From contig OZ245365.1 of NCBI GenBank assembly GCA_965226495.1, positions 1,472,001-1,536,000 on the forward strand: a DNA stretch of 64,000 nt, in the 5' to 3' direction. The position numbers and the translations under genes are program-made. This stretch comes from Candidatus Marinacidobacterales bacterium (lineage in GTDB: Bacteria > Acidobacteriota > Vicinamibacteria > Marinacidobacterales > DATDRI01). Shown piece by piece: positions 8,041-18,334 of the stretch (its first letter is position 1; the number at the start of each line of letters is the position of its first letter). The notes under the pieces were generated by a model that was not told where the DNA came from, ran no database searches, and worked only from the letters and a program-made list of their open reading frames with translations.

Positions 8041-10101
8041 GTGAATAGCCTGGTTCAGTGGACGCCCGTGCTCGGCGTAGTGGCGCTCCTTTTCGCTTGG
8101 TACAAGGCCGGCTTCGTTTCCCGTCAGGACCAGGGAACCGATCGCATGAAGGAAATTGCGTCCTTCATCAGCCAAGGCGCGATGGCCTTCCTGCGCCGAG
8201 AGTACTCGGTCCTGGCGGTTTTTGCCCTCTTTGTGGCAGTGGCGCTCTTCCTGGCGAACTACTCGAACGGAACCCAGCTGGTCGGGGTCTCCTACATCGT
8301 GGGGGCTTCATGCTCGGCGCTGGCCGGCTTCTTCGGAATGCGGGTGGCGACAAAAGCGAATGTCCGGACGACCAACGCGGCCCGCGAGTCGATGGCTCGC
8401 GCGCTCAACGTGGCGTTCTCCGGTGGCGTGGTAATGGGCATGTCGGTGGTGGGACTGGGCGTGTTGGGCCTCTCACTTCTCTTCATCCTCTATACGAATC
8501 TCTTCGGCACCGGACTCGATGTCATGCAAAACAAGGTGCTACAGGTTCTGTCCGGGTTCAGTTTAGGCGCGTCTTCCATCGCCCTATTCGCTCGTGTAGG
8601 AGGAGGGATTTACACGAAGTCGGCCGATGTCGGAGCCGATCTGGTTGGGAAGGTCGAAGCGGGAATTCCCGAAGATGATCCACGGAATCCTGCGGTGATT
8701 GCCGACCTTGTCGGTGATAACGTCGGTGACGTGGCCGGGATGGGAGCCGACTTGTTCGAGTCTTATGCGGGAGCGATCATCGGCGGCATGGTGTTGGGAT
8801 TGGTATTCGTCCGTGACATGGAAGCTGCCGGGACGTCGGTGACGAATCCCTTGAACTATGTCGTTCTGCCCCTCGTCCTCGCCGCGGTTGGGATTCTTTG
8901 CTCCATTGCTGGCACTTTCGCGGTGAGAACCGGCGAAGGTAAGAACCCGCAGACCGCTCTCAATGCCGGGACGATCGGGGCAGGGGTGGTCATGCTCATC
9001 GTCGCGATCCCCGTGATCCGCACGCTCTGCCCAGAGGCATGGGCCAATCTCTACGGCGCGATGGTCATCGGACTTGCCCTCGGCATCGCGATTGGTTTCA
9101 TCACGGAGTACTACACTTCAGAAGCGCGGAGTCCGGCGCGAGAGATCGCCGCGGCGTCCCAGACCGGAGCGGCTACCAACATCATCGCTGGCCTGGCCCT
9201 GGGCATGAAGTCGACAGGCTGGCCTCTTTTTCTCATTGCCGCCGCGATCCCGGCGACGTATCACCTGGCAGGAGTTTACGGCATCGCGCTCGCCGGACTC
9301 GGAATGCTCTGCACAGTGGGAATCCAGCTTGCCGTCGACGCTTACGGGCCCATCGCCGACAATGCGGGAGGTATCGCGGAGATGAGCGAGCTTCCGAAAG
9401 AAGTGCGGGCGCGCACCGACAAACTGGATGCGGTCGGGAACACCACCGCCGCCATTGGAAAGGGTTTTGCGATCGGCTCGGCCGCGCTGGCGGCGCTGGC
9501 GTTGATGGCCGCTTTTCAGGAACAGGCACGGCTGAAGCCCGAGGAGCTATCTATTCTGAACCCGACCGTACTCGCCGGTCTATTGCTTGGTGGGATGGTG
9601 CCGTTTCTGTTCTCCTCGATGGCGATGAAGGCAGTGGGGGAAGCCGCTTTCGACATGATCGAGGAGGTGCGCCGGCAATTCAGAGAAATTCCAGGACTAT
9701 TGGAAGGCAAGAAAGGCGTCCGCGCCGACCATGCTCGGTGCGTCGACATCGCCACCGCAGCGGCGCTCAAGCGGATGATCATGCCAGGCTTGATGGCGAT
9801 TGTGATCCCCGTAGTCGCGGGATTCATCGACAAAAACTTGCTCGCCGGCGTTTTGGGCGGCGCGATCGTGTCAGGAGTCTTACTCGCGATCTTCATGGCC
9901 AACGCCGGAGGGGCTTGGGACAATGCCAAGAAACACATCGAGGGTGGTGCCTTCGGAGGCAAGGGCTCCGATTCTCACAAGGCCGCGGTGGTAGGCGATA
10001 CAGTAGGTGACCCCTTCAAGGACACCGCTGGCCCGAGCATCAACATTCTGCTCAAGCTGATGTCGGTAGTGTCTCTCGTGATTGCTCCATTGATCAGGTA
10101 A
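8041..10101 (+). CDS. hppA: Membrane-bound pyrophosphatase, K+-dependent, probably Na+-translocating
   Basis: [62 protein letters not shown]; SD GAGGAGG. Confidence 0.95.
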
Positions 10102-11210: not shown

Positions 11211-11274
11211 GGGCGAGTCAGTATGAAGGAAGCCGCAGTCTCTCGTCCACCCGAAAGCGCTACACTTGATAGCG

Positions 11275-12834
11275 GTGCAACTAAAGGATTTGGTTGAGAC
11301 TTCTAGGCGGGTTTCGGAGACGAGCGGTCGGCTCGCAAAAATCGGGCTGCTCGCGGAGCTTCTGAAGCGCTTTGCAGAGGAAGAGATGGCCATCGGCACG
11401 CTCTATCTCACGGGAGAGCTTCCCCAAGGTCGGATCGGTGTCGGTTGGTCCGCAGTACGGAATGCAACCCCGAAGACCGCAGCCGATACACCAAGCCTGA
11501 AGCTTCTCGACGTGGACCGTTCCTTCGATGCCATCGCCGGTACGACCGGACGTGGCTCCGCGGCGGACCGCGCTCTCATTCTCTATCGTTTGCTCGCGCG
11601 CGGCACGCAGGAAGAGCAGATATTCCTGACGCGGCTCATCATGGGTGAGCTCCGTCAAGGCGCTCTGGAAGGCGTGATGGTAGAGGCAGTGGCCAAGGCC
11701 TCTGAAGTTCCGGCACGAGCGGTGCGAAGGGCGTTCATGTTCGCCGGGGATCTCGGCGCGGTCGCTCAAACCGCTGTCAACGAGGGAGCCGAGGGTCTAG
11801 AGCGCATCGGTATCCAGCTCTTCCGTCCCATCAAACCGATGCTGGCGCAGACCGCCGAGTCTGTCAGCGAAGCGCTCGAGCGTTTGGAAACCGCCGCGTT
11901 CGAGTTCAAATTGGACGGCGCTCGGGTCCAGGCTCATAAGAGGGGAGAGGACGTTCGACTCTTCACCCGTCGTTTGAACGACGTCACGCCCGCGGTGCCC
12001 GAGATCGTCGAGAGGGTGCGTGCCCTGGCGGCGGAGGAGATCATTCTAGATGGGGAGACGCTGGCGCTCCGCTCGGACGGCTCGCCGCAGCCGTTTCAAA
12101 TCACGATGCGACGGTTCGGGCGCCGACTCGATGTCGCGGCGATGCGCGAAGAACTGCCTCTCACGACATTTTTCTTCGACTGTCTGTACCTAGATGGAGC
12201 GAGTTGGGTCGACCGACCGGCCGAAGAGCGTTACGAGGCCCTCTCGAGTGTCGTTTCTTCGGACCAATTGGTCCCGCGCCGAGTGACGGCCCAGCCGGAC
12301 GAGGCTGCCTCCTTCGAACGTCAGGCGCTCGAAGCGGGACACGAAGGGCTCATGGCGAAAGCGTTGGACGCACCCTATGAGGCGGGCGGACGCGGTCGAA
12401 GTTGGCTCAAAGTAAAACGAGCGCACACGCTCGACCTCATCGTCATGGCCGCGGAGTGGGGGAGCGGTCGCCGCCGCGGATGGCTCAGCAACCTGCACCT
12501 CGGAGCACGTGACCCAGCTACCGGCGAACCGGTGATGTTAGGGAAGACCTTCAAAGGAATGACGGACGAGATACTGGAGTGGCAAACGAAACGACTTCAG
12601 GAGTTGGAAACATCGCGCGACCGCTTCACGATCTACGTCCGCCCGGAGCTTGTGGTGGAAATCGCGTTCAACAATATCCAGGCCAGCCCGCAGTATCCGG
12701 CGGGCCTGGCGCTTCGTTTCGCGCGCGTAAAGGGCTACCGCCCCGACAAATCACCGAAAGAAGCCGACACCGTGGACGCGGTGCGGGCGATTCACGAGGC
12801 TAGCCTGGGCGCTTCAAAAGGAAGTACTGATTGA
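11275..12834 (+). CDS. ATP-dependent DNA ligase (LigB type)
   Basis: EFKLDGARVQAH motif I, EGLMAK, WLKVK, ALRFARV. Confidence 0.93.
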   Translation: MQLKDLVETSRRVSETSGRLAKIGLLAELLKRFAEEEMAIGTLYLTGELPQGRIGVGWSAVRNATPKTAADTPSLKLLDVDRSFDAIAGTTGRGSAADRALILYRLLARGTQEEQIFLTRLIMGELRQGALEGVMVEAVAKASEVPARAVRRAFMFAGDLGAVAQTAVNEGAEGLERIGIQLFRPIKPMLAQTAESVSEALERLETAAFEFKLDGARVQAHKRGEDVRLFTRRLNDVTPAVPEIVERVRALAAEEIILDGETLALRSDGSPQPFQITMRRFGRRLDVAAMREELPLTTFFFDCLYLDGASWVDRPAEERYEALSSVVSSDQLVPRRVTAQPDEAASFERQALEAGHEGLMAKALDAPYEAGGRGRSWLKVKRAHTLDLIVMAAEWGSGRRRGWLSNLHLGARDPATGEPVMLGKTFKGMTDEILEWQTKRLQELETSRDRFTIYVRPELVVEIAFNNIQASPQYPAGLALRFARVKGYRPDKSPKEADTVDAVRAIHEASLGASKGSTD

Positions 12835-13543
12835 GATCATTCGTCCGCCCGTCCGCGGTAAAGACCTCGAAGCACTCCAAGGGTTGGGAGGACACCAGCC
12901 GCGCGCTTTCGTCGCTGTCAGTGAAATGACAGTAGCGATACGCCGGCTCCGCATCTCCCCAAGAGAGGATGTGATCGCCCGGCTCGAGCTGGGATGAATC
13001 GATCTCGGCCCCAGTCGAGGCGAGGAACGTGTCCCAAGGGATGAGCTTCTTTCTAAATCTCTCGAAGCGGCCGAATTGCCAGATCGAGAAAGCGAGGATC
13101 CCGTCGGGCTCGAGTAGACGGCCGAGCTCGATGAGCAATGAGCGCCGCGTGTCGAAGCCTGGCACATGATGGAGAAAGCCAAAGAGCGTGATCAGCGAAA
13201 ACGACCCGGCTGGTTCGTCGATTCCCGTCATCACGTCGTGATCTTTCAGCGTGATGGTGGGAAGGTCGGATAGTTTCGCGCGAGCGTGCTCGAGCGCAGT
13301 TGGACTGAATTCGACACCCATGTAGCTGAACGGCGATTCTAGATGCTCGCTGAGAAAGACGGCGAATCGCCCGTTGCCACATCCCACATCGAGAACGGAG
13401 AGGGTTTGTTTCTCCCCAATGAATGGCAGCAGTCGGAGCCAGCCCCGCCACGGCCTCCGACGCGTCGCGCTAAACTCGTCCGCACGTTGGGTGTAGAAGT
13501 CCCGGTTGATCTGGTTGAGTGCTAAAATGGTGGCCCGATCCAT
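12800..13543 (-). CDS. Class I SAM methyltransferase with Trm9/ALKBH8-like motifs
   Basis: FYTQRADEFSATRRRPW, VLDVGCGNG, FLHHVP, FSIW, RYCHF; start taken at MDRATIL. Confidence 0.8.
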   Translation of the reverse strand: MDRATILALNQINRDFYTQRADEFSATRRRPWRGWLRLLPFIGEKQTLSVLDVGCGNGRFAVFLSEHLESPFSYMGVEFSPTALEHARAKLSDLPTITLKDHDVMTGIDEPAGSFSLITLFGFLHHVPGFDTRRSLLIELGRLLEPDGILAFSIWQFGRFERFRKKLIPWDTFLASTGAEIDSSQLEPGDHILSWGDAEPAYRYCHFTDSDESARLVSSQPLECFEVFTADGRTNDLNQYFLLKRPG

Positions 13544-13554
13544 CGGTTGAGTGT

Positions 13555-15333
13555 ATGAAAAAAGCGACATGGTTGGCACCGTATCATTTTTCACCCGAGC
13601 TCCATGAGCGGGAGCTCCGCGCCATCATTCAAGAGGTCGAAGACTGTCCCGATGTTCAAGGGAAGACGCTCGACCGTATTCTCCGAAAATACCCCAAGGG
13701 CGGAAAGGCTTTTTTTTCCAAGAGCGAGATCATCCAGGGGTATCGCCACCTGGCCGAGCGCGACGGATGGTCGGGCGATGCTGATCTTTTCATCGAAAAG
13801 CTCAAGATGAAGCCGGTGCGCACGCTGAGCGGCGTCACCCCAGTAACGGTGCTGACCAAACCGTTTCCTTGTCCTGGCCAATGCATTTTCTGTCCTAACG
13901 ATGTGCGGATGCCCAAGAGCTACCTGTCCTTGGAGCCGGGTGCGCAGCGAGCTGCTCAGCACCAGTTCGATCCCTATGAGCAGACGCACTCCCGGCTCAG
14001 CGCTCTTCGGCGAATGGGGCACCGGTTGGAGAAGATCGAGCTCATCATCCTGGGAGGGACTTGGTCTTTCTATCCCGAAGGCTACCAGCGATGGTTCATT
14101 CGTCGATGTTTCGAAGCGATGAACGACTTCGGTGAGGGTGACTCGTCGAACGGCTCCGTGCGTCATCCTGTCGACTACGAAGAGCTCCGCGAGCAAGTAG
14201 ACGGTCGGTTCGAGACCAATCCCTACAACGACATCGTTTCCGGATTCCTGCGCTCCAAGGAAAACGGCGAGCTGGTGCACGAATCGGAGTTCTCGACTAT
14301 CGAAGCGCTCGAGGAGGCACAACGGGTGAACGAAACGGCCCGCCATAGATGTATTGGGCTTTCCGTCGAGACACGGCCGGACTATGTTTCCGAAGAGGAG
14401 GTCGAGCGGATTCGAACGCTAGGCGCAACGAGGGTGCAGATCGGTATCCAAAGCCTTTCGGACGAAGTCCTCTCGCTCAACAAGCGAGGCCACGACGTAG
14501 CGACCACTCGCAGAGCGGTTCGAATGCTGAGGGAGGCCGGTTTCAAGATCCAGGCTCACTGGATGCCGAACCTCTACGGCTCAACCCCGGAGCTTGATGT
14601 CGAAGATTTCGAACGCCTCTTTAGCGATCCAGACTTTCGACCCGACGAGCTCAAGATCTATCCGTGTAGTTTGATCGAAAGCGCCGAGCTGATGGTTCCC
14701 TACGAAGCAGGGAAGTGGAAGCCCTACACTCATGACGAGCTTCTGCATGTCTTGGTCGAATGCCTCCGGCGAGTACCGAGTTATTGCCGCGTGAGTCGGG
14801 TGATCCGGGACATCCCGGGCGACGACATCTTGGATGGCAACAAAACATCGAACTTCCGAGGTATTGCCGAAGCGGAGTTGGTGGCAAGGGGACTCCAGTG
14901 CGAAGACATTCGGAGTCGCGAGATCCGCGGCGAGCGGGTCCCAGCCGAGGACCTTCAGCTGGACGAGATTCGCTACGAGAGCTCCATTGGAGAAGAAGTC
15001 TTTCTGCAATACATCGACGACCATCGCCGCATCGCCGGGTTCCTGCGGCTCGCTCTGCCCACACGAGAAGCCTTCATCGATGAGATCCGCGAGAGCGCCA
15101 TGATCCGGGAAGTGCACGTCTATGGTGCGACCGCTCGCCTTGGCGAGAAGGATGAGCTCAAGACGCAGCACATCGGTTTGGGTCGGAGTCTCATCCTTCG
15201 CGCGGAAGAGCTGGCTCGCGAGGCTGGCTTTGCGAGCCTGGCCGTCATCTCGAGCGTTGGCACCAAGGAGTACTACCGGCGCCTCGGTTTCCACGACCGC
15301 CGTCTCTACCAGCACAAAAACCTCGTTTCCTGA
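13555..15333 (+). CDS. elp3: Elp3-family tRNA uridine(34) carboxymethyltransferase (radical SAM + KAT)
   Basis: KPVRTLSGVTPV, CPGQCIFCP, PKSY, GGTW, ETRPD, RVIRDIP, REVHVYG, QHIGLG, VGTKEYYRRLG. Confidence 0.93.
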   Translation: MKKATWLAPYHFSPELHERELRAIIQEVEDCPDVQGKTLDRILRKYPKGGKAFFSKSEIIQGYRHLAERDGWSGDADLFIEKLKMKPVRTLSGVTPVTVLTKPFPCPGQCIFCPNDVRMPKSYLSLEPGAQRAAQHQFDPYEQTHSRLSALRRMGHRLEKIELIILGGTWSFYPEGYQRWFIRRCFEAMNDFGEGDSSNGSVRHPVDYEELREQVDGRFETNPYNDIVSGFLRSKENGELVHESEFSTIEALEEAQRVNETARHRCIGLSVETRPDYVSEEEVERIRTLGATRVQIGIQSLSDEVLSLNKRGHDVATTRRAVRMLREAGFKIQAHWMPNLYGSTPELDVEDFERLFSDPDFRPDELKIYPCSLIESAELMVPYEAGKWKPYTHDELLHVLVECLRRVPSYCRVSRVIRDIPGDDILDGNKTSNFRGIAEAELVARGLQCEDIRSREIRGERVPAEDLQLDEIRYESSIGEEVFLQYIDDHRRIAGFLRLALPTREAFIDEIRESAMIREVHVYGATARLGEKDELKTQHIGLGRSLILRAEELAREAGFASLAVISSVGTKEYYRRLGFHDRRLYQHKNLVS

Positions 15334-15347
15334 ACGGGAGAACGAAG

Positions 15348-16499
15348 ATGAAATCCATGGTTTGTCTTTTTCTAGTATTTTTCTATGCGCCATCGACTTG
15401 GGCCGAGCCAAAACCGCGGGCCCGCGACTTGGGGATCCCGTTCGAAGGCACGCCCGGCGCTTTGAACGCCATCACCGATGTGGCCGGCGTGGAGGTCGGC
15501 CACACGACGCTTATCGAAGGTGAGGACGTGCGCACCGGTGTGACGGTCATTCTTCCGAGAGGGGAGAGTTCCAAGGATCCCGTCTTTGCCGGCTGGTTTT
15601 CACTCAACGGCAATGGTGAGATGACCGGGACGACCTGGGTGGAAGAGTCCGGGTTTCTCGAAGGACCCATCGCGATCACCAACACTCATAGCGTGGGAGT
15701 CGTTCGGGACGCGATCATCCAATGGCAGGCGAAGGAAGACACACTCTTTCAACCATGGTCTCTGCCGGTTGTGGCGGAGACTTACGACGGCTGGCTCAAC
15801 GATATCAACGGGTTCCACGTCAAAGCCGAGCATGTTTTCGAGGCGCTTAGCGTTGCGGCGTCGGGGCCGGTCGCGGAGGGCAACGTCGGCGGCGGCACGG
15901 GCATGATTACCTACGGATTCAAAGGTGGCATCGGGACGTCGTCGCGCAGGCTGAGTGCAGAACAAGGCGGATACACGGTCGGCGTCTTGGTTCAGTCGAA
16001 TTTTGGATCCCGACCCTTACTGCGCGTCGCCGGAGTTCCGGTCGGTCGAGAGCTGGGGTGCGACGAAGTGCCCTGTCCCTCATGGGGACGACCCCGGCCC
16101 CAGCGGGAGGGCTCCATCATTATTGTCGTCGCGACGGATGCTCCCCTGCTTGCGCACCAAGTGAAGCGTCTCGGCCGGCGCGCCGCTCTCGGACTAGCGA
16201 GAACCGGGAGCATCTCCGGTAACGGATCGGGCGACATCTTCATGGCTTTTTCGACAGCCAATCCCGGCGCGGCGGGCGCGAAGGACCTGGCTCAGTTGAA
16301 AATGCTTCCTAACGGACGATTGGGGCCTGTCTTCCAGGCGACCGTCGAAGCCACCGAGGAGGCCATCATTAATGCAATGATGGCCTCGGAGACCATCGTG
16401 GGAAGGGACGACCACAAGGTGGTCGCTCTCCCACATGACGAGGTGCGGGCCGTGATGCGGAAGTACGGTCGGCTCGTCGAGAACGCTTCTCAGGACTGA
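15348..16499 (+). CDS. DmpA/P1-family aminopeptidase with signal peptide
   Basis: RARDLGI, NAITDVAGVEVGH, GNVGGGTGM, GNGSGD autoprocessing site. Confidence 0.9.
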   Translation: MKSMVCLFLVFFYAPSTWAEPKPRARDLGIPFEGTPGALNAITDVAGVEVGHTTLIEGEDVRTGVTVILPRGESSKDPVFAGWFSLNGNGEMTGTTWVEESGFLEGPIAITNTHSVGVVRDAIIQWQAKEDTLFQPWSLPVVAETYDGWLNDINGFHVKAEHVFEALSVAASGPVAEGNVGGGTGMITYGFKGGIGTSSRRLSAEQGGYTVGVLVQSNFGSRPLLRVAGVPVGRELGCDEVPCPSWGRPRPQREGSIIIVVATDAPLLAHQVKRLGRRAALGLARTGSISGNGSGDIFMAFSTANPGAAGAKDLAQLKMLPNGRLGPVFQATVEATEEAIINAMMASETIVGRDDHKVVALPHDEVRAVMRKYGRLVENASQD

Positions 16500-16634: not shown

Positions 16635-17435
16635 ATGGGCAAAACGCTAGGCGCACTAGAGACGCGGTTTTTCGCATATATCCAGCTGCGAAAACTCAAA
16701 TCGGTGGAGATTGGCGACCTGACGAGAGCCCTCGGCCTGTCACCAACCCAGGAACGGAAACTGTTGAGTCGTTTGTCACAGGCGGGCTTGATTGCCCGCG
16801 TTCGTCGCGGGCTCTATTTGGTGCCGCCCCGGCTCCCGTCTGGCGGAAAGTGGAGCCCGGGCGAATTTCTGGCGTTGACCACGCTCATCGGGGACCAAGG
16901 CGGCCGCTATCAGATCTGTGGACCGAATGCGTTCTACCGGTATGGTTGGGACGAGCAAGTACTCAACCGTGTCTATGCCTATAACAATCGGCTCTCTGGA
17001 GAACGTAGCATCGGTCCCGTCGCGCTGACTTTAGTAAGGGTCTCGGACGAACGCCTCGGCGCGACTGAGGTCGCGAGAACGCCCGAAGGGATCGACGTAG
17101 TTTATTCGTCCAAGCCTCGCTCGCTGATAGACGCGGTTTATGACTGGTCCCGATTCAATAGTCTACCGCGAGCATACGAATGGATGCGCGCGGAGCTGGC
17201 CAAGGACAGTAAGATCGCAAGCGAATTGGTAAGCGCAGGCCTTCGCTACGGCAATCAGGGAACGCTGCGGCGTATCGGGAAACTCCTCGAAACGCAGGCT
17301 GCGCCAGAGTCGCTGCTGCGGAAGTTGGAACAACAGCTCCGACCATCGTCCAGTCTCATTCCGTGGGTCCCGACTCTCCCGAAACGGGGAGGGGCAGATC
17401 GCCGTTGGGGCGTCATTTTGAACGACGCGTGGTGA
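16635..17435 (+). CDS. Type IV TA antitoxin, AbiEi family
   Basis: N-terminal wHTH (LSRLSQAGLIARVRRGLYLVP), RSLIDAVYD; directly upstream of AbiEii-like gene. Confidence 0.8.
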   Translation: MGKTLGALETRFFAYIQLRKLKSVEIGDLTRALGLSPTQERKLLSRLSQAGLIARVRRGLYLVPPRLPSGGKWSPGEFLALTTLIGDQGGRYQICGPNAFYRYGWDEQVLNRVYAYNNRLSGERSIGPVALTLVRVSDERLGATEVARTPEGIDVVYSSKPRSLIDAVYDWSRFNSLPRAYEWMRAELAKDSKIASELVSAGLRYGNQGTLRRIGKLLETQAAPESLLRKLEQQLRPSSSLIPWVPTLPKRGGADRRWGVILNDAW

Positions 17436-17442
17436 TAGCCAA

Positions 17443-18334
17443 ATGGCAAATTACCACGAAGACAATGATCTGTTCCGGGAAGCGTTGACCTATACCGAAT
17501 CGGACACCGGCTTTAGCGCGCGGTTGATCGAAAAAGACTACTACTGCTCGATCCTACTCCGCGATCTGGGCAGGGCCTTCGAAAGAGGGCTAGTTTTCAA
17601 AGGTGGCACTTGTCTGAGCAAGGTCCACGCGGGCTTTTATCGCATGAGTGAGGACCTCGATTTCGCCATTCCAGTATCCTCGAACACGTCGCGCGCCAAG
17701 CGACGGGCCAGTGTTGCACCGCTAAAGCGAGAGTTTGACGGATTGCCGACGCGGCTTCCTTGTTTTCGAACTGTCGAGGCGCTGCGTGGATTCAATCTTA
17801 ATAAGCAGTACATCGGGCGGTATTGTTATCGCTCCGGTGTAACCGGGCAAGATGAGTTCATCAAGGTTGAACTTAGCGTCAGAGAGCCAATTCTCGATCC
17901 GGTGGAACGAAAGCCTGCGCGTACTTTGCTCGAGGACCCTCTGAGAAACGAGCCTGCCGTTACGGCGTTTTCCGTCCACGTGTTGTCGTTTCTAGAAGCG
18001 TACGCTGAAAAGTGTCGGGCCGCGTTGACGCGAAGAACGCCCGCAATCCGTGACTTCTACGACATTGATCATGCCGTTCGCACCCAAAAGCTAGGTCCAG
18101 CCGATACCGGCCTACTGAAGCTTGTGCGCAAGAAGCTCGTTGTGCCCGGAAATTCTGCGATCGACTCTTCTCAACAGAAGCTAGACGTTCTGACCAGGCA
18201 ACTAGAGTCAGAGTGCCGGCCCGGCGAGGCGGGGGGAGGGGAGGCTGAAGCCTGTCTTGCGGGCGAAAGATTTCGAAAGGTTTGACCTCGATCGAGCTTT
18301 TGGAATCGTCAGGAGCCTCGCTGAGGCTCTCTAG
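17443..18334 (+). pseudogene. AbiEii nucleotidyltransferase toxin, C-terminus frameshifted by 31-bp insertion
   Basis: IEKDYY, VFKGGTCLSK, RMSEDLDF, AEKCRAA, RDFYDI; ORF ends at 18285, but removing 18214-18244 restores LKPVLRAKDFERFDLDRAFGIVRSLAEAL to TAG at 18334. Confidence 0.75.

Follow-up and report, generated by a model that had tools for sequence, protein, structure and literature searches.

A head-to-head elp3 and Trm9/ALKBH8-like methyltransferase gene pair as a probable wobble-uridine pathway in a bacterium of the Acidobacteriota

Most bacteria modify wobble uridines with MnmE/MnmG, whereas in eukaryotes and archaea Elp3 forms cm5U34 and Trm9, together with Trm112, then produces mcm5U. 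Reviews draw the same line, assigning MnmE/MnmG to bacteria and Elp3/Trm9 to eukaryotes and some archaea. One treats bacterial Elp3 as a trait of one clade with a product for which direct evidence is lacking (PMC7663514), and another, from 2017, reports no bacterial gene that resembles the Trm112-partner methyltransferases (PMC5372719). A 2026 paper considers Elp3 possible in numerous bacteria and, in its passages on the subject, names no bacterial partner (PMC13315578). Our literature search found neither a bacterial Elp3-Trm9 pathway, of which the initial annotation of this locus had likewise known no description, nor, in work on bacterial Elp3, a named downstream methyltransferase.

The minimal archaeal pathway, for which mcm5U has been measured, consists of a stand-alone Elp3 and Trm9-Trm112 (Haloferax volcanii HVO_1032); elp3 and trm9 are clustered in Sulfolobus solfataricus (PMC6144793). 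The locus described here resembles it in combining a single-subunit Elp3 with a Trm9-type enzyme, sometimes encoded side by side, but it is bacterial and divergently arranged and is accompanied by MnmA in place of Ncs6/NcsA. With fungal Trm9-Trm112 (S. cerevisiae; Y. lipolytica, 5CM2) and the ALKBH8 domain, the methyltransferase shares the class I fold, the Elp3 partner and a series of motifs (N-terminal Y-x6-F-x3-R-x3-W, HH, W, D-x4-W, RY-x-H and a terminal Asn). It differs from them, at ~20% identity by profile, in a Cys in place of Tyr243, an extra segment after W155, a six-residue insert before N238 and the linkage of its gene to elp3, and from ALKBH8 also in having no AlkB or RRM domain. 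The Elp3 proteins of Dehalococcoides mccartyi (5L7J) and Methanocaldococcus infernus (6IA8/6IAZ) have the same two domains as the protein encoded here, with Fe-S cysteines and acetyl-CoA pocket residues that align to its own; it differs in its N-terminal extension and a ~60-aa insert (192-249) within 592 aa. MnmE-MnmG, which yields cmnm5U/nm5U34, has the target (C5 of U34), a presumed decoding role and the partner MnmA in common with the putative Elp3 pathway, whereas enzymes and chemistry are unrelated.

Layout of the locus

The window, a stretch of 64,000 nucleotides, comes from a genome near Candidatus Marinacidobacterales (Acidobacteriota). It contains the following features:

12800..13543, minus strand: methyltransferase gene, ATG 13543 to TAG 12800, 247 aa; Trm9/ALKBH8-like class I SAM enzyme, predicted to convert cm5U34 to mcm5U34
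13544..13554: 11-bp gap separating the divergent start codons, read from the sequence
13555..15333, plus strand: elp3, ATG 13555 to TGA 15333, 592 aa; radical SAM and KAT domains, predicted tRNA U34 carboxymethylase
13520..13528, plus strand: extended -10-like TGCTAAAAT, a candidate for elp3 from the initial annotation
13550..13555, minus strand: -10-like TACACT, ending 6 nt upstream of the start codon of the methyltransferase gene; a lead towards a possible leaderless start

Both reading frames are intact in the window sequence. Longer ORF versions begin upstream at GTG 13594 and GTG 13519, but close homologues start at a Met matching ATG 13543 or ATG 13555, and an identical 11-bp gap was found in two relatives (loci L022 and L023). 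The ORFs and homologue starts thus bear out the closely spaced starts initially proposed, and all motifs quoted at the time were found again (FYTQRADEFSATRRRPW, DVGCGNG, LHH and RYCHF in the methyltransferase, CPGQCIFC in Elp3). In the public runs X2 and X5, one contig each matches the region 12300-15716 letter for letter; either run could derive from the source sample. GC and GC3 of the pair agree with those of the neighbouring genes, giving no sign of recent arrival.

Given the 11-bp gap, either each promoter overlaps the 5' end of the opposite gene or the mRNA is leaderless; the two genes are presumably co-regulated. Of the promoter first suggested for elp3, the extended -10-like stretch is present, but a sigma-70 scan of 12600-15600 yielded no full promoter (0 sites versus 0.6 expected). 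The -10-like TACACT also precedes the methyltransferase ATG in both L022 and L023, and TAnnnT occurs 5-8 nt before the ATG in 17/77 loci, a raw count without chance control. The elp3 transcript trace amounts to one 156-nt contig from one metatranscriptome, too little to count.

Identity of the two enzymes

By sequence, the product of 13555-15333 is a complete Elp3, predicted to form cm5U34 on tRNA. It scored 504.6 bits against TIGR01211 (family cut-off 350), and its PDB matches included 6iaz (4e-110, the alignment covering residues 77-588) and 5l7j (3e-102). Domain searches detected PF04055, PF16199 and a weak GNAT match, and the radical SAM three-Cys motif is C106/C110/C113 within CPGQCIFC (106-113), in agreement with the Fe-S motif and KAT domain attributed to it at the outset. 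The reference residues of M. infernus Elp3 include the acetyl-CoA pocket K150, K266, Q461 and Y517 (PMC6367351). Mapped through the 6iaz alignment, for which a numbering offset of 42 was inferred, K160, K331, E519, H521 and Y573 align with K150, K266, Q461, H463 and Y517, so that the pocket here is formed by K160, K331, E519 and Y573. The position of E519 appears likewise to be Glu in DmcElp3 (E386).

The divergent gene encodes a class I SAM-dependent enzyme with a Rossmann fold, according to Pfam, a model with a pLDDT of 96.8 and fold matches. When a profile of its family (A1, 132 sequences) was compared with the PDB, Trm9 (5CM2, 5cm2_Z) was the top of 152 matches (58.1 bits, E 6.7e-15; runner-up 46.5), and among longer proteins the first named matches were three ALKBH8. 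Alignment of the family with a Trm9/ALKBH8 set by hhalign gave a probability of 99.85 over 216 columns, and 56 eukaryote-type proteins scored a median of 77.6 bits with A1, where no other methyltransferase of the genome exceeded 55.0. In the reciprocal test with single ALKBH8 domains, the methyltransferase ranked first in the genome for 3/3. With an HMM of 56 eukaryote-type Trm9/ALKBH8 sequences it ranked fourth (38.8 bits), with three unrelated methyltransferases scoring higher (44-46 bits), and with the single protein as query 5CM2 was absent among the best 30 PDB matches listed. Foldseek placed 5CM2, a truncated structure, fourth among near-ties, though with the highest target TM-score listed (0.76), and VIA-align did not return it in its top 50; fold searches gave equally good matches to numerous unrelated class I methyltransferases and do not discriminate the family. 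A quick tree of bacterial and eukaryotic sequences, without archaeal Trm9 rows, joined the two groups at SH-aLRT 82%, with 2/15 other methyltransferases inside on long branches. ESM Atlas matches were exclusively bacterial methyltransferase clusters without names. A supposed archaeal Trm9 on a Natrinema replicon was rejected, as the best match did not carry the Trm9 motifs. Clustering with unrelated families, which would have refuted the initial reading, is not borne out by the profile comparison: the family's top PDB profile match is Trm9, its nearest characterised family by sequence profile. Profile and active-site residues speak for this kinship, while fold, tree and reciprocal HMM leave strict orthology unproven.

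In yeast Trm9, loss of any of eight residues abolishes function in vivo (PMC4678810). Mapping via the 5CM2 and ALKBH8 alignments showed that seven of the eight are kept, with Asp72 as Glu: R29, D72, H116, W145, W168, R241 and N271 correspond to R28, E78, H126, W155, W195, R203 and N238, and are present in 115-132 of the 132 family members. The eighth, Tyr243, is C205 here and Cys in 125/132 members; the yeast Tyr243 mutant has ~10% activity (PMC4678810). The yeast residues that, in a model, hold the cm5 carboxylate and uracil ring (Y18, R29, H115, H116, W145, R241 and N271; PMC4678810) are all retained. In the methyltransferase, Y17, R28, H125, H126, R133, W155, W195, R203, D231 and N238 are conserved, and conservation coincides with the tRNA-binding residues of Trm9. 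A four-motif Trm9 signature, picked after the alignments had been seen, occurs in 114/132 family members, 45/56 eukaryote-type Trm9/ALKBH8 proteins and 0/35 other methyltransferase matches of the genome; its N- and C-terminal motifs together occur in this ORF alone among 93,983 ORFs. One member of the family forms a fusion with a SpoU RNA methyltransferase.

Genome setting and co-occurrence

The check for mnmE and mnmG suggested initially found neither in the source genome (G000), which is 94.8% complete. They have been cleanly deleted from between jag and rsmG, which are spaced by 53 bp in G000, while the same-class genome G196 carries mnmE-mnmG at this place. MnmA is encoded in G000; Ncs6/TtuA was not found there, nor was CmoB (best 35 bits versus the TIGR00452 cut-off of 275, at the same completeness), so that a cmo5U ester of the CmoM type would have no precursor. 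The tRNA-Arg(UCG) of G000 was discarded as a sign of eukaryote-like decoding, its pattern matching 138/251 genomes of the phylum and 0/8 other Elp3 carriers. The only Trm112 (PF03966) match over cut-off in G000, a 63-aa Trm112/YcaR, lies at C1:392614-392802, outside the window in an LPS-type cluster. Within the window, where no Trm112-like gene had been noticed, no listed ORF of at least 250 aa was identified as Trm112. Unlike the situation in fungal Trm9/ALKBH8, PF03966 was not found in 5/5 Patescibacteria and 2/5 Chloroflexota carriers.

Even samples of two phyla comprised 251 Acidobacteriota and 201 second-phylum genomes (452 in total). The methyltransferase was detected in 9 of the former, the same 9 as Elp3, with MnmG in 212 others, and in 27 of the latter, all within the 30 carrying Elp3, with MnmG in 113 others; the overlap was zero in both, and 3/30 second-phylum Elp3 genomes gave no match to A1. 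Thus the co-distribution with elp3 on which the first reading depended is found in 36/36 methyltransferase carriers, and MnmG occurs in 0/39 Elp3 carriers and in 325 other genomes, counts that are not independent events because carriers cluster by lineage. Both MnmG and Elp3 are missing from 88/452 genomes (30 + 58) and from 16/16 genomes of one family of the source order (f3), implying that mnmG can go missing without replacement. Among 50 hand-picked carrier genomes, Elp3 was present in 46 and MnmG in none.

The neighbourhood comparison called for at the start showed the pairing conserved in 46/80 loci, 45 of them divergent and 32 within an estimated 300 bp; where the two genes lie apart, Elp3 is still encoded in 21/25 genomes. 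Records titled Acidobacteriota, Myxococcota, Chloroflexota and Patescibacteria keep the head-to-head pair, whereas every other neighbour varies. No third gene recurs beside it across phyla in the 80 loci, the recurrent neighbours scanned (SDR, DUF427, RecQ) each being restricted to a lineage. Records titled 'Pseudomonadales' were not counted as Proteobacteria because their genomes are small (0.8-1.5 Mb) and the two gene trees place them with Patescibacteria. The argument makes no use of the individual records titled Spirochaetaceae, Phycisphaera, Verrucomicrobia and Pleurocapsa. Plasmids gave no full-length methyltransferase match (four weak partial matches), and 25 viral loci contained no family member (best E 1e-10). 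The plasmid search also turned up one haloarchaeal Elp3.

Proposed pathway and alternative readings

Profile match, kept residues and co-distribution support the Elp3-Trm9 pathway first proposed for this locus. We consider it likely that Elp3 makes cm5U34, that mcm5U arises from it by esterification through the methyltransferase and that MnmA adds s2, together replacing MnmE-MnmG. Elp3 would use an Fe-S/SAM radical and acetyl-CoA to attach a carboxymethyl group to C5 of U34, and the methyltransferase would transfer a methyl group from SAM onto the cm5U carboxylate. In tRNA Lys(UUU), Glu(UUC) and Gln(UUG), the bacterial thiolase MnmA would probably add the 2-thio group. The resulting mcm5s2U would come from a hybrid route that joins a eukaryote/archaea-type C5 chain to bacterial-type sulfur. 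The two genes would thus form a stand-alone wobble-uridine pathway in place of MnmE-MnmG in the source lineage.

A Trm9-like enzyme could also have another substrate, as is suspected for TRMT9B: a carboxylate on a protein or small molecule, or a different position in RNA, with a merely regulatory or supporting link to elp3. The undiscriminating fold and the fourth rank in the broad reciprocal HMM test would fit this, but the association with Elp3 and without MnmG in all carriers of the even samples, the conservation of tRNA-binding positions and, for a cmo5U ester, the missing precursor make it very improbable. That adjacency reflects inherited synteny without function, the loss of mnmEG being a separate event, deserves hardly any credence: genomes without both MnmG and Elp3 agree with it, but it is largely refuted by a pair that holds across four phylum titles while other neighbours change, and by the persistence of Elp3 where the genes are separated. 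We see somewhat more, though still little, in the idea that the methyltransferase acts in the Elp3 pathway with an end product other than mcm5U, through a transient ester to ncm5U or another base, or at another position or intermediate of U34. The Tyr243 to Cys change and the insertion before the U34-reading Asn alter its pocket, cm5U is rerouted to other products on Trm9 loss in Haloferax and yeast (PMC6144793), and the SpoU fusion hints at extra 2'-O-methylation in some family members. Against this stand the full retention of the residues modelled around the cm5 carboxylate and uracil ring and the lack of a third gene that accompanies the pair across phyla in the 80 loci.

Formation of mcm5U is therefore the reading we prefer. 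The loss of mnmE-mnmG together with head-to-head relatives of Elp3 and Trm9 suggests that the source bacterium probably produces a tRNA base so far unmeasured in bacteria. More tentatively, and with doubt slightly outweighing belief, the pair may be a portable, Trm112-independent cassette that passed from Chloroflexota/Patescibacteria to scattered Acidobacteriota/Myxococcota, repeatedly displaced MnmE-MnmG and created a hybrid Elp3/Trm9/MnmA route to mcm5s2U, its methyltransferase perhaps being a deep sister of eukaryotic Trm9/ALKBH8. If the mcm5U reading is true, several bacterial phyla would decode with mcm5(s2)U, and the question of what bacterial Elp3 makes would have a specific, testable answer. 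The MnmE/MnmG and Elp3/Trm9 wobble systems would be interchangeable, and a small, possibly Trm112-free Trm9 would provide a simple model for human ALKBH8.

The divergent elp3-methyltransferase locus

The initial annotation had described a complete Elp3 gene head-to-head with one for a Trm9/ALKBH8-like methyltransferase. Both frames are present, with start codons 11 bp apart, and the genes flanking the pair are unrelated to it:

Window 11266-12834: ATP-dependent DNA ligase (PRK03180 over cut-off), 35-bp overlap with the methyltransferase 3' end
Window 13543-12800, - strand: methyltransferase (METHYLTRANSFERASE), ORF of 247 aa
Window 13555-15333, + strand: elp3, ORF of 592 aa
After elp3: S58 peptidase

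Two public runs each contain one contig identical to the window over 12300-15716, and the genome, G000, is a single 6.34-Mb contig, 94.8% complete. The methyltransferase is 91% identical in the nearest titled relative, Ca. Marinacidobacterales, and FastTree trees place that record in Acidobacteriota. The window also holds an H+-pyrophosphatase (8041-10101) and, 1.3 kb after elp3, an AbiEi-type antitoxin with an AbiEii nucleotidyltransferase (type IV toxin-antitoxin, 16635-18285).

Completeness of Elp3 was borne out by TIGR01211 (504.6 bits versus a cut-off of 350) and by matches to Elp3 structures in the PDB (E 4e-110 to 3e-82) from M. infernus, D. mccartyi, human and yeast. Its Fe-S cysteines are 106, 110 and 113. 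In the PDB alignment, with an inferred numbering offset of 42, K160, K331, E519, H521 and Y573 align to M. infernus K150, K266, Q461, H463 and Y517, the residues named in the available text of PMC6367351.

A search of genome contigs yielded at least 538 confirmed methyltransferase loci. Among the best 80, elp3 was present in 46, divergently in 45 and within an estimated 300 bp in 32; 8 of the 34 loci lacking elp3 had less than 2.5 kb of upstream sequence. Record titles of linked loci include Acidobacteriota, Myxococcota, Chloroflexota and Patescibacteria, and no third gene recurred across phyla in the 80 loci. Of 50 carrier genomes hand-picked from these 80, 25 of them without adjacent elp3, 46 yielded a match to Elp3 and none a match to MnmG. 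The Elp3-methyltransferase pair is a real, conserved feature. Short second methyltransferase fragments near elp3, separate from the intact copy, occur in two genomes (G018:C1:7174827 and G028:C6:536508), which suggests local rearrangement.

Co-distribution with Elp3 and the rest of the pathway

MnmE and MnmG, the usual bacterial C5 wobble-U34 enzymes, were looked for in G000 and neither was found. The gene order there is yidC-jag-rsmG-parA with 53 bp from jag to rsmG, and hence their absence is no assembly gap but a deletion there; the jag-rsmG interval of the same-class genome G196 holds both, and mnmG immediately precedes rsmG or parA in five further genomes. Between rsmG and parA of G000, overlapping the rsmG end, lies a free-standing LAGLIDADG endonuclease ORF (G000:C1:5695049-5695456; locus L175:2027-2434, -).

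Among 40 relatives from the same order, families f1 and f2 carry the methyltransferase orthologue in 23 of 24 genomes and Elp3 in 22 (all three failures fall in assemblies broken into 340-960 contigs), while family f3 has neither (0/16 each); MnmG was found in 0/41 genomes of the own-order set. In an even sample of Acidobacteriota (n=251) the same 9 genomes, from five families, carry methyltransferase and Elp3, and 212, including G113, flagged unpublished, carry MnmG, with zero overlap and 30 genomes having neither. The phylum of G070 (record titled Myxococcota; n=201), sampled in the same even way, gave 27 methyltransferase genomes, all among 30 with Elp3, and 113 with MnmG, again with zero overlap and with neither in 58; related genomes in these counts are not independent of one another. 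The three Elp3-only genomes (G380:C3, G402:C1, G422:C3; L169-L171) have no match to the methyltransferase profile, nor any such gene within ~4 kb of elp3; two of them carry a 650-aa gene directly after it. Searches for MnmG and Elp3 drew a blank for both in 88 of the 452 genomes sampled and in f3 (G009-G039, odd numbers), whose genomes are 89-95% complete, several single-contig; such lineages may have no C5 wobble modification at all or a third, unknown route.

G000 encodes the 2-thio enzyme MnmA (352 versus a cut-off of 237 bits), and its tRNAs with U34 include those for Lys, Glu, Gln, Arg and Gly. No Ncs6/TtuA or CmoB was detected in it. A Trm112/YcaR of 63 aa is encoded in another cluster. 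PF03966 exceeded the cut-off in 10/10 Acidobacteriota or Myxococcota carriers tried (several weakly and within longer frames), 3/5 Chloroflexota and 0/5 Patescibacteria carriers, an unevenness which argues that Trm112 is no fixed part of the module. Two tRNA-Sec(UCA) genes predicted by ARAGORN lie 2.3 kb apart (G000:C1:173953-174050 and 176351-176447); the ALKBH8 product is important for mammalian tRNA-Sec. G000 combines tRNA-Arg ACG, UCG and CCG, and a tRNA-Arg(UCG)-type pattern occurs in 138/251 genomes of the Acidobacteriota sample.

Likeness of the methyltransferase to Trm9

Taken alone, the methyltransferase sequence looks generic: no NCBIfam family exceeded its cut-off, and Y. lipolytica Trm9 (5CM2) was absent among the 30 PDB matches listed. 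The family is large and without a name (728 clusters with an E value of 1e-30 or better), TRM9 being the JGI automatic name for 4 of 120 close homologues among the matches listed. A profile from 132 members (A1) placed 5CM2 top of 152 PDB matches, and hhalign against 40 Trm9/ALKBH8-type proteins alone gave a probability of 99.85 over 216 columns. Matches of A1 among longer proteins began with one fusion to SpoU and two to PF03808, followed by three ALKBH8. In P0270 (527 aa) a family member is joined to an RNA methyltransferase domain of the SpoU (TrmH/TrmL) type; the PF03808 fusions, P0271 and P0272, are more remote from the family.

The accessible text of Letoquart et al. (PMC4678810) describes eight yeast Trm9 mutants inactive in vivo (R29, D72, H116, W145, W168, R241, Y243, N271), which we mapped via the 5CM2 and ALKBH8 alignments.

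Counterparts of yeast Trm9 residues and their conservation over 132 family members
R29: R28, 132/132
D72: E78, Asp in 127/132
H116: H126, 127/132
W145: W155, 131/132
W168: W195, 115/132, Phe in 16
R241: R203, 132/132
Y243: differs, C205, Cys in 125/132
N271: N238, 131/132

Y18 and H115 (yeast numbering), modelled near the substrate, are invariant in the family, and H24, K31, E148 and Q149, dispensable in yeast, are variable. A four-motif signature, picked after the alignments had been seen, occurs in 114/132 family members, 45/56 eukaryote-type proteins and 0/35 other G000 methyltransferase matches.

Profile rank and key residues favour the proposed likeness to Trm9, but other tests are divided. 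Single ALKBH8 domains (3/3) rank the ORF first in G000, whereas an HMM from 56 eukaryote-type proteins puts it fourth. The AlphaFold model (pLDDT 96.8) fits many class I enzymes equally, with 5CM2 fourth in Foldseek and absent from the top 50 of VIA, where METTL6 and NTMT come first. A quick tree of 65 rows (25 of the 132 family members, 23 eukaryote-type proteins, 2 fusions, 15 other G000 methyltransferases) joins the Trm9-like rows (SH-aLRT 82), and two unrelated long branches fall within that group. On HMM rank, fold matches and tree, the methyltransferase is a distinct bacterial subfamily, Trm9-like in looks and probably in function, and no more than a candidate for strict orthology. A viral-contig protein (L120:3968-4612, IMGVR_UViG_3300005613_002150) scores 118.6 bits with the eukaryote-type HMM and is possibly a virus-borne Trm9.

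Predicted pathway and its possible history

We consider it highly probable, judging from gene content and conserved residues, that Elp3 makes cm5U34, which the methyltransferase would convert to mcm5U34, with MnmA supplying s2 on Lys, Glu and Gln tRNAs. That the same pathway leads to another end product is unlikely; the Cys at the Y243 position stands beside the otherwise retained key residues. Action of the methyltransferase on a different substrate is less likely still. Chance synteny is very improbable.

FastTree trees of 41 paired genes agree in setting Chloroflexota apart from a group that mixes Acidobacteriota with Myxococcota (support 90 in the Elp3 tree and 98 in the methyltransferase tree); Patescibacteria-type rows belong to neither group. 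Along with the scattered occurrence in two phyla that mostly carry MnmG, these groupings would fit a history in which the pair was transferred and mnmEG was lost afterwards. Searches of plasmid and viral sequences turned up no copy. The title 'uncultured Pseudomonadales' of seven loci (L054, L064, L085-L087, L091, L101) is probably mistaken: their genomes measure 0.8-1.5 Mb, and the loci included in the trees cluster with Patescibacteria.

In the accessible parts of a mostly open-access literature we likewise found no described bacterial Elp3-Trm9 pathway and no measurement of mcm5U in a bacterium; supplementary Elp3 distribution tables may contain such a mention. As far as the available text of each source goes, bacteria have no detected genes similar to Trm112-partner methyltransferases (PMC5372719), Elp3 occurs in one bacterial clade with no direct evidence of xcm5U (PMC7663514) or in numerous bacteria (PMC13315578), Haloferax mcm5U depends on Trm9 and Trm112, and Sulfolobus has an elp3-trm9 cluster (both PMC6144793). 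The portions available of a compendium from 2026 on RNA modifications in bacteria (PMC13602947) do not mention Elp, mcm5 or cm5U, and those of PMC6313347, PMC6356722, PMC8879553 and bioRxiv 10.64898/2026.05.18.725915 hold nothing on bacterial Elp3-Trm9. The predicted pathway would be known chemistry in a new domain, with the standard bacterial system replaced.
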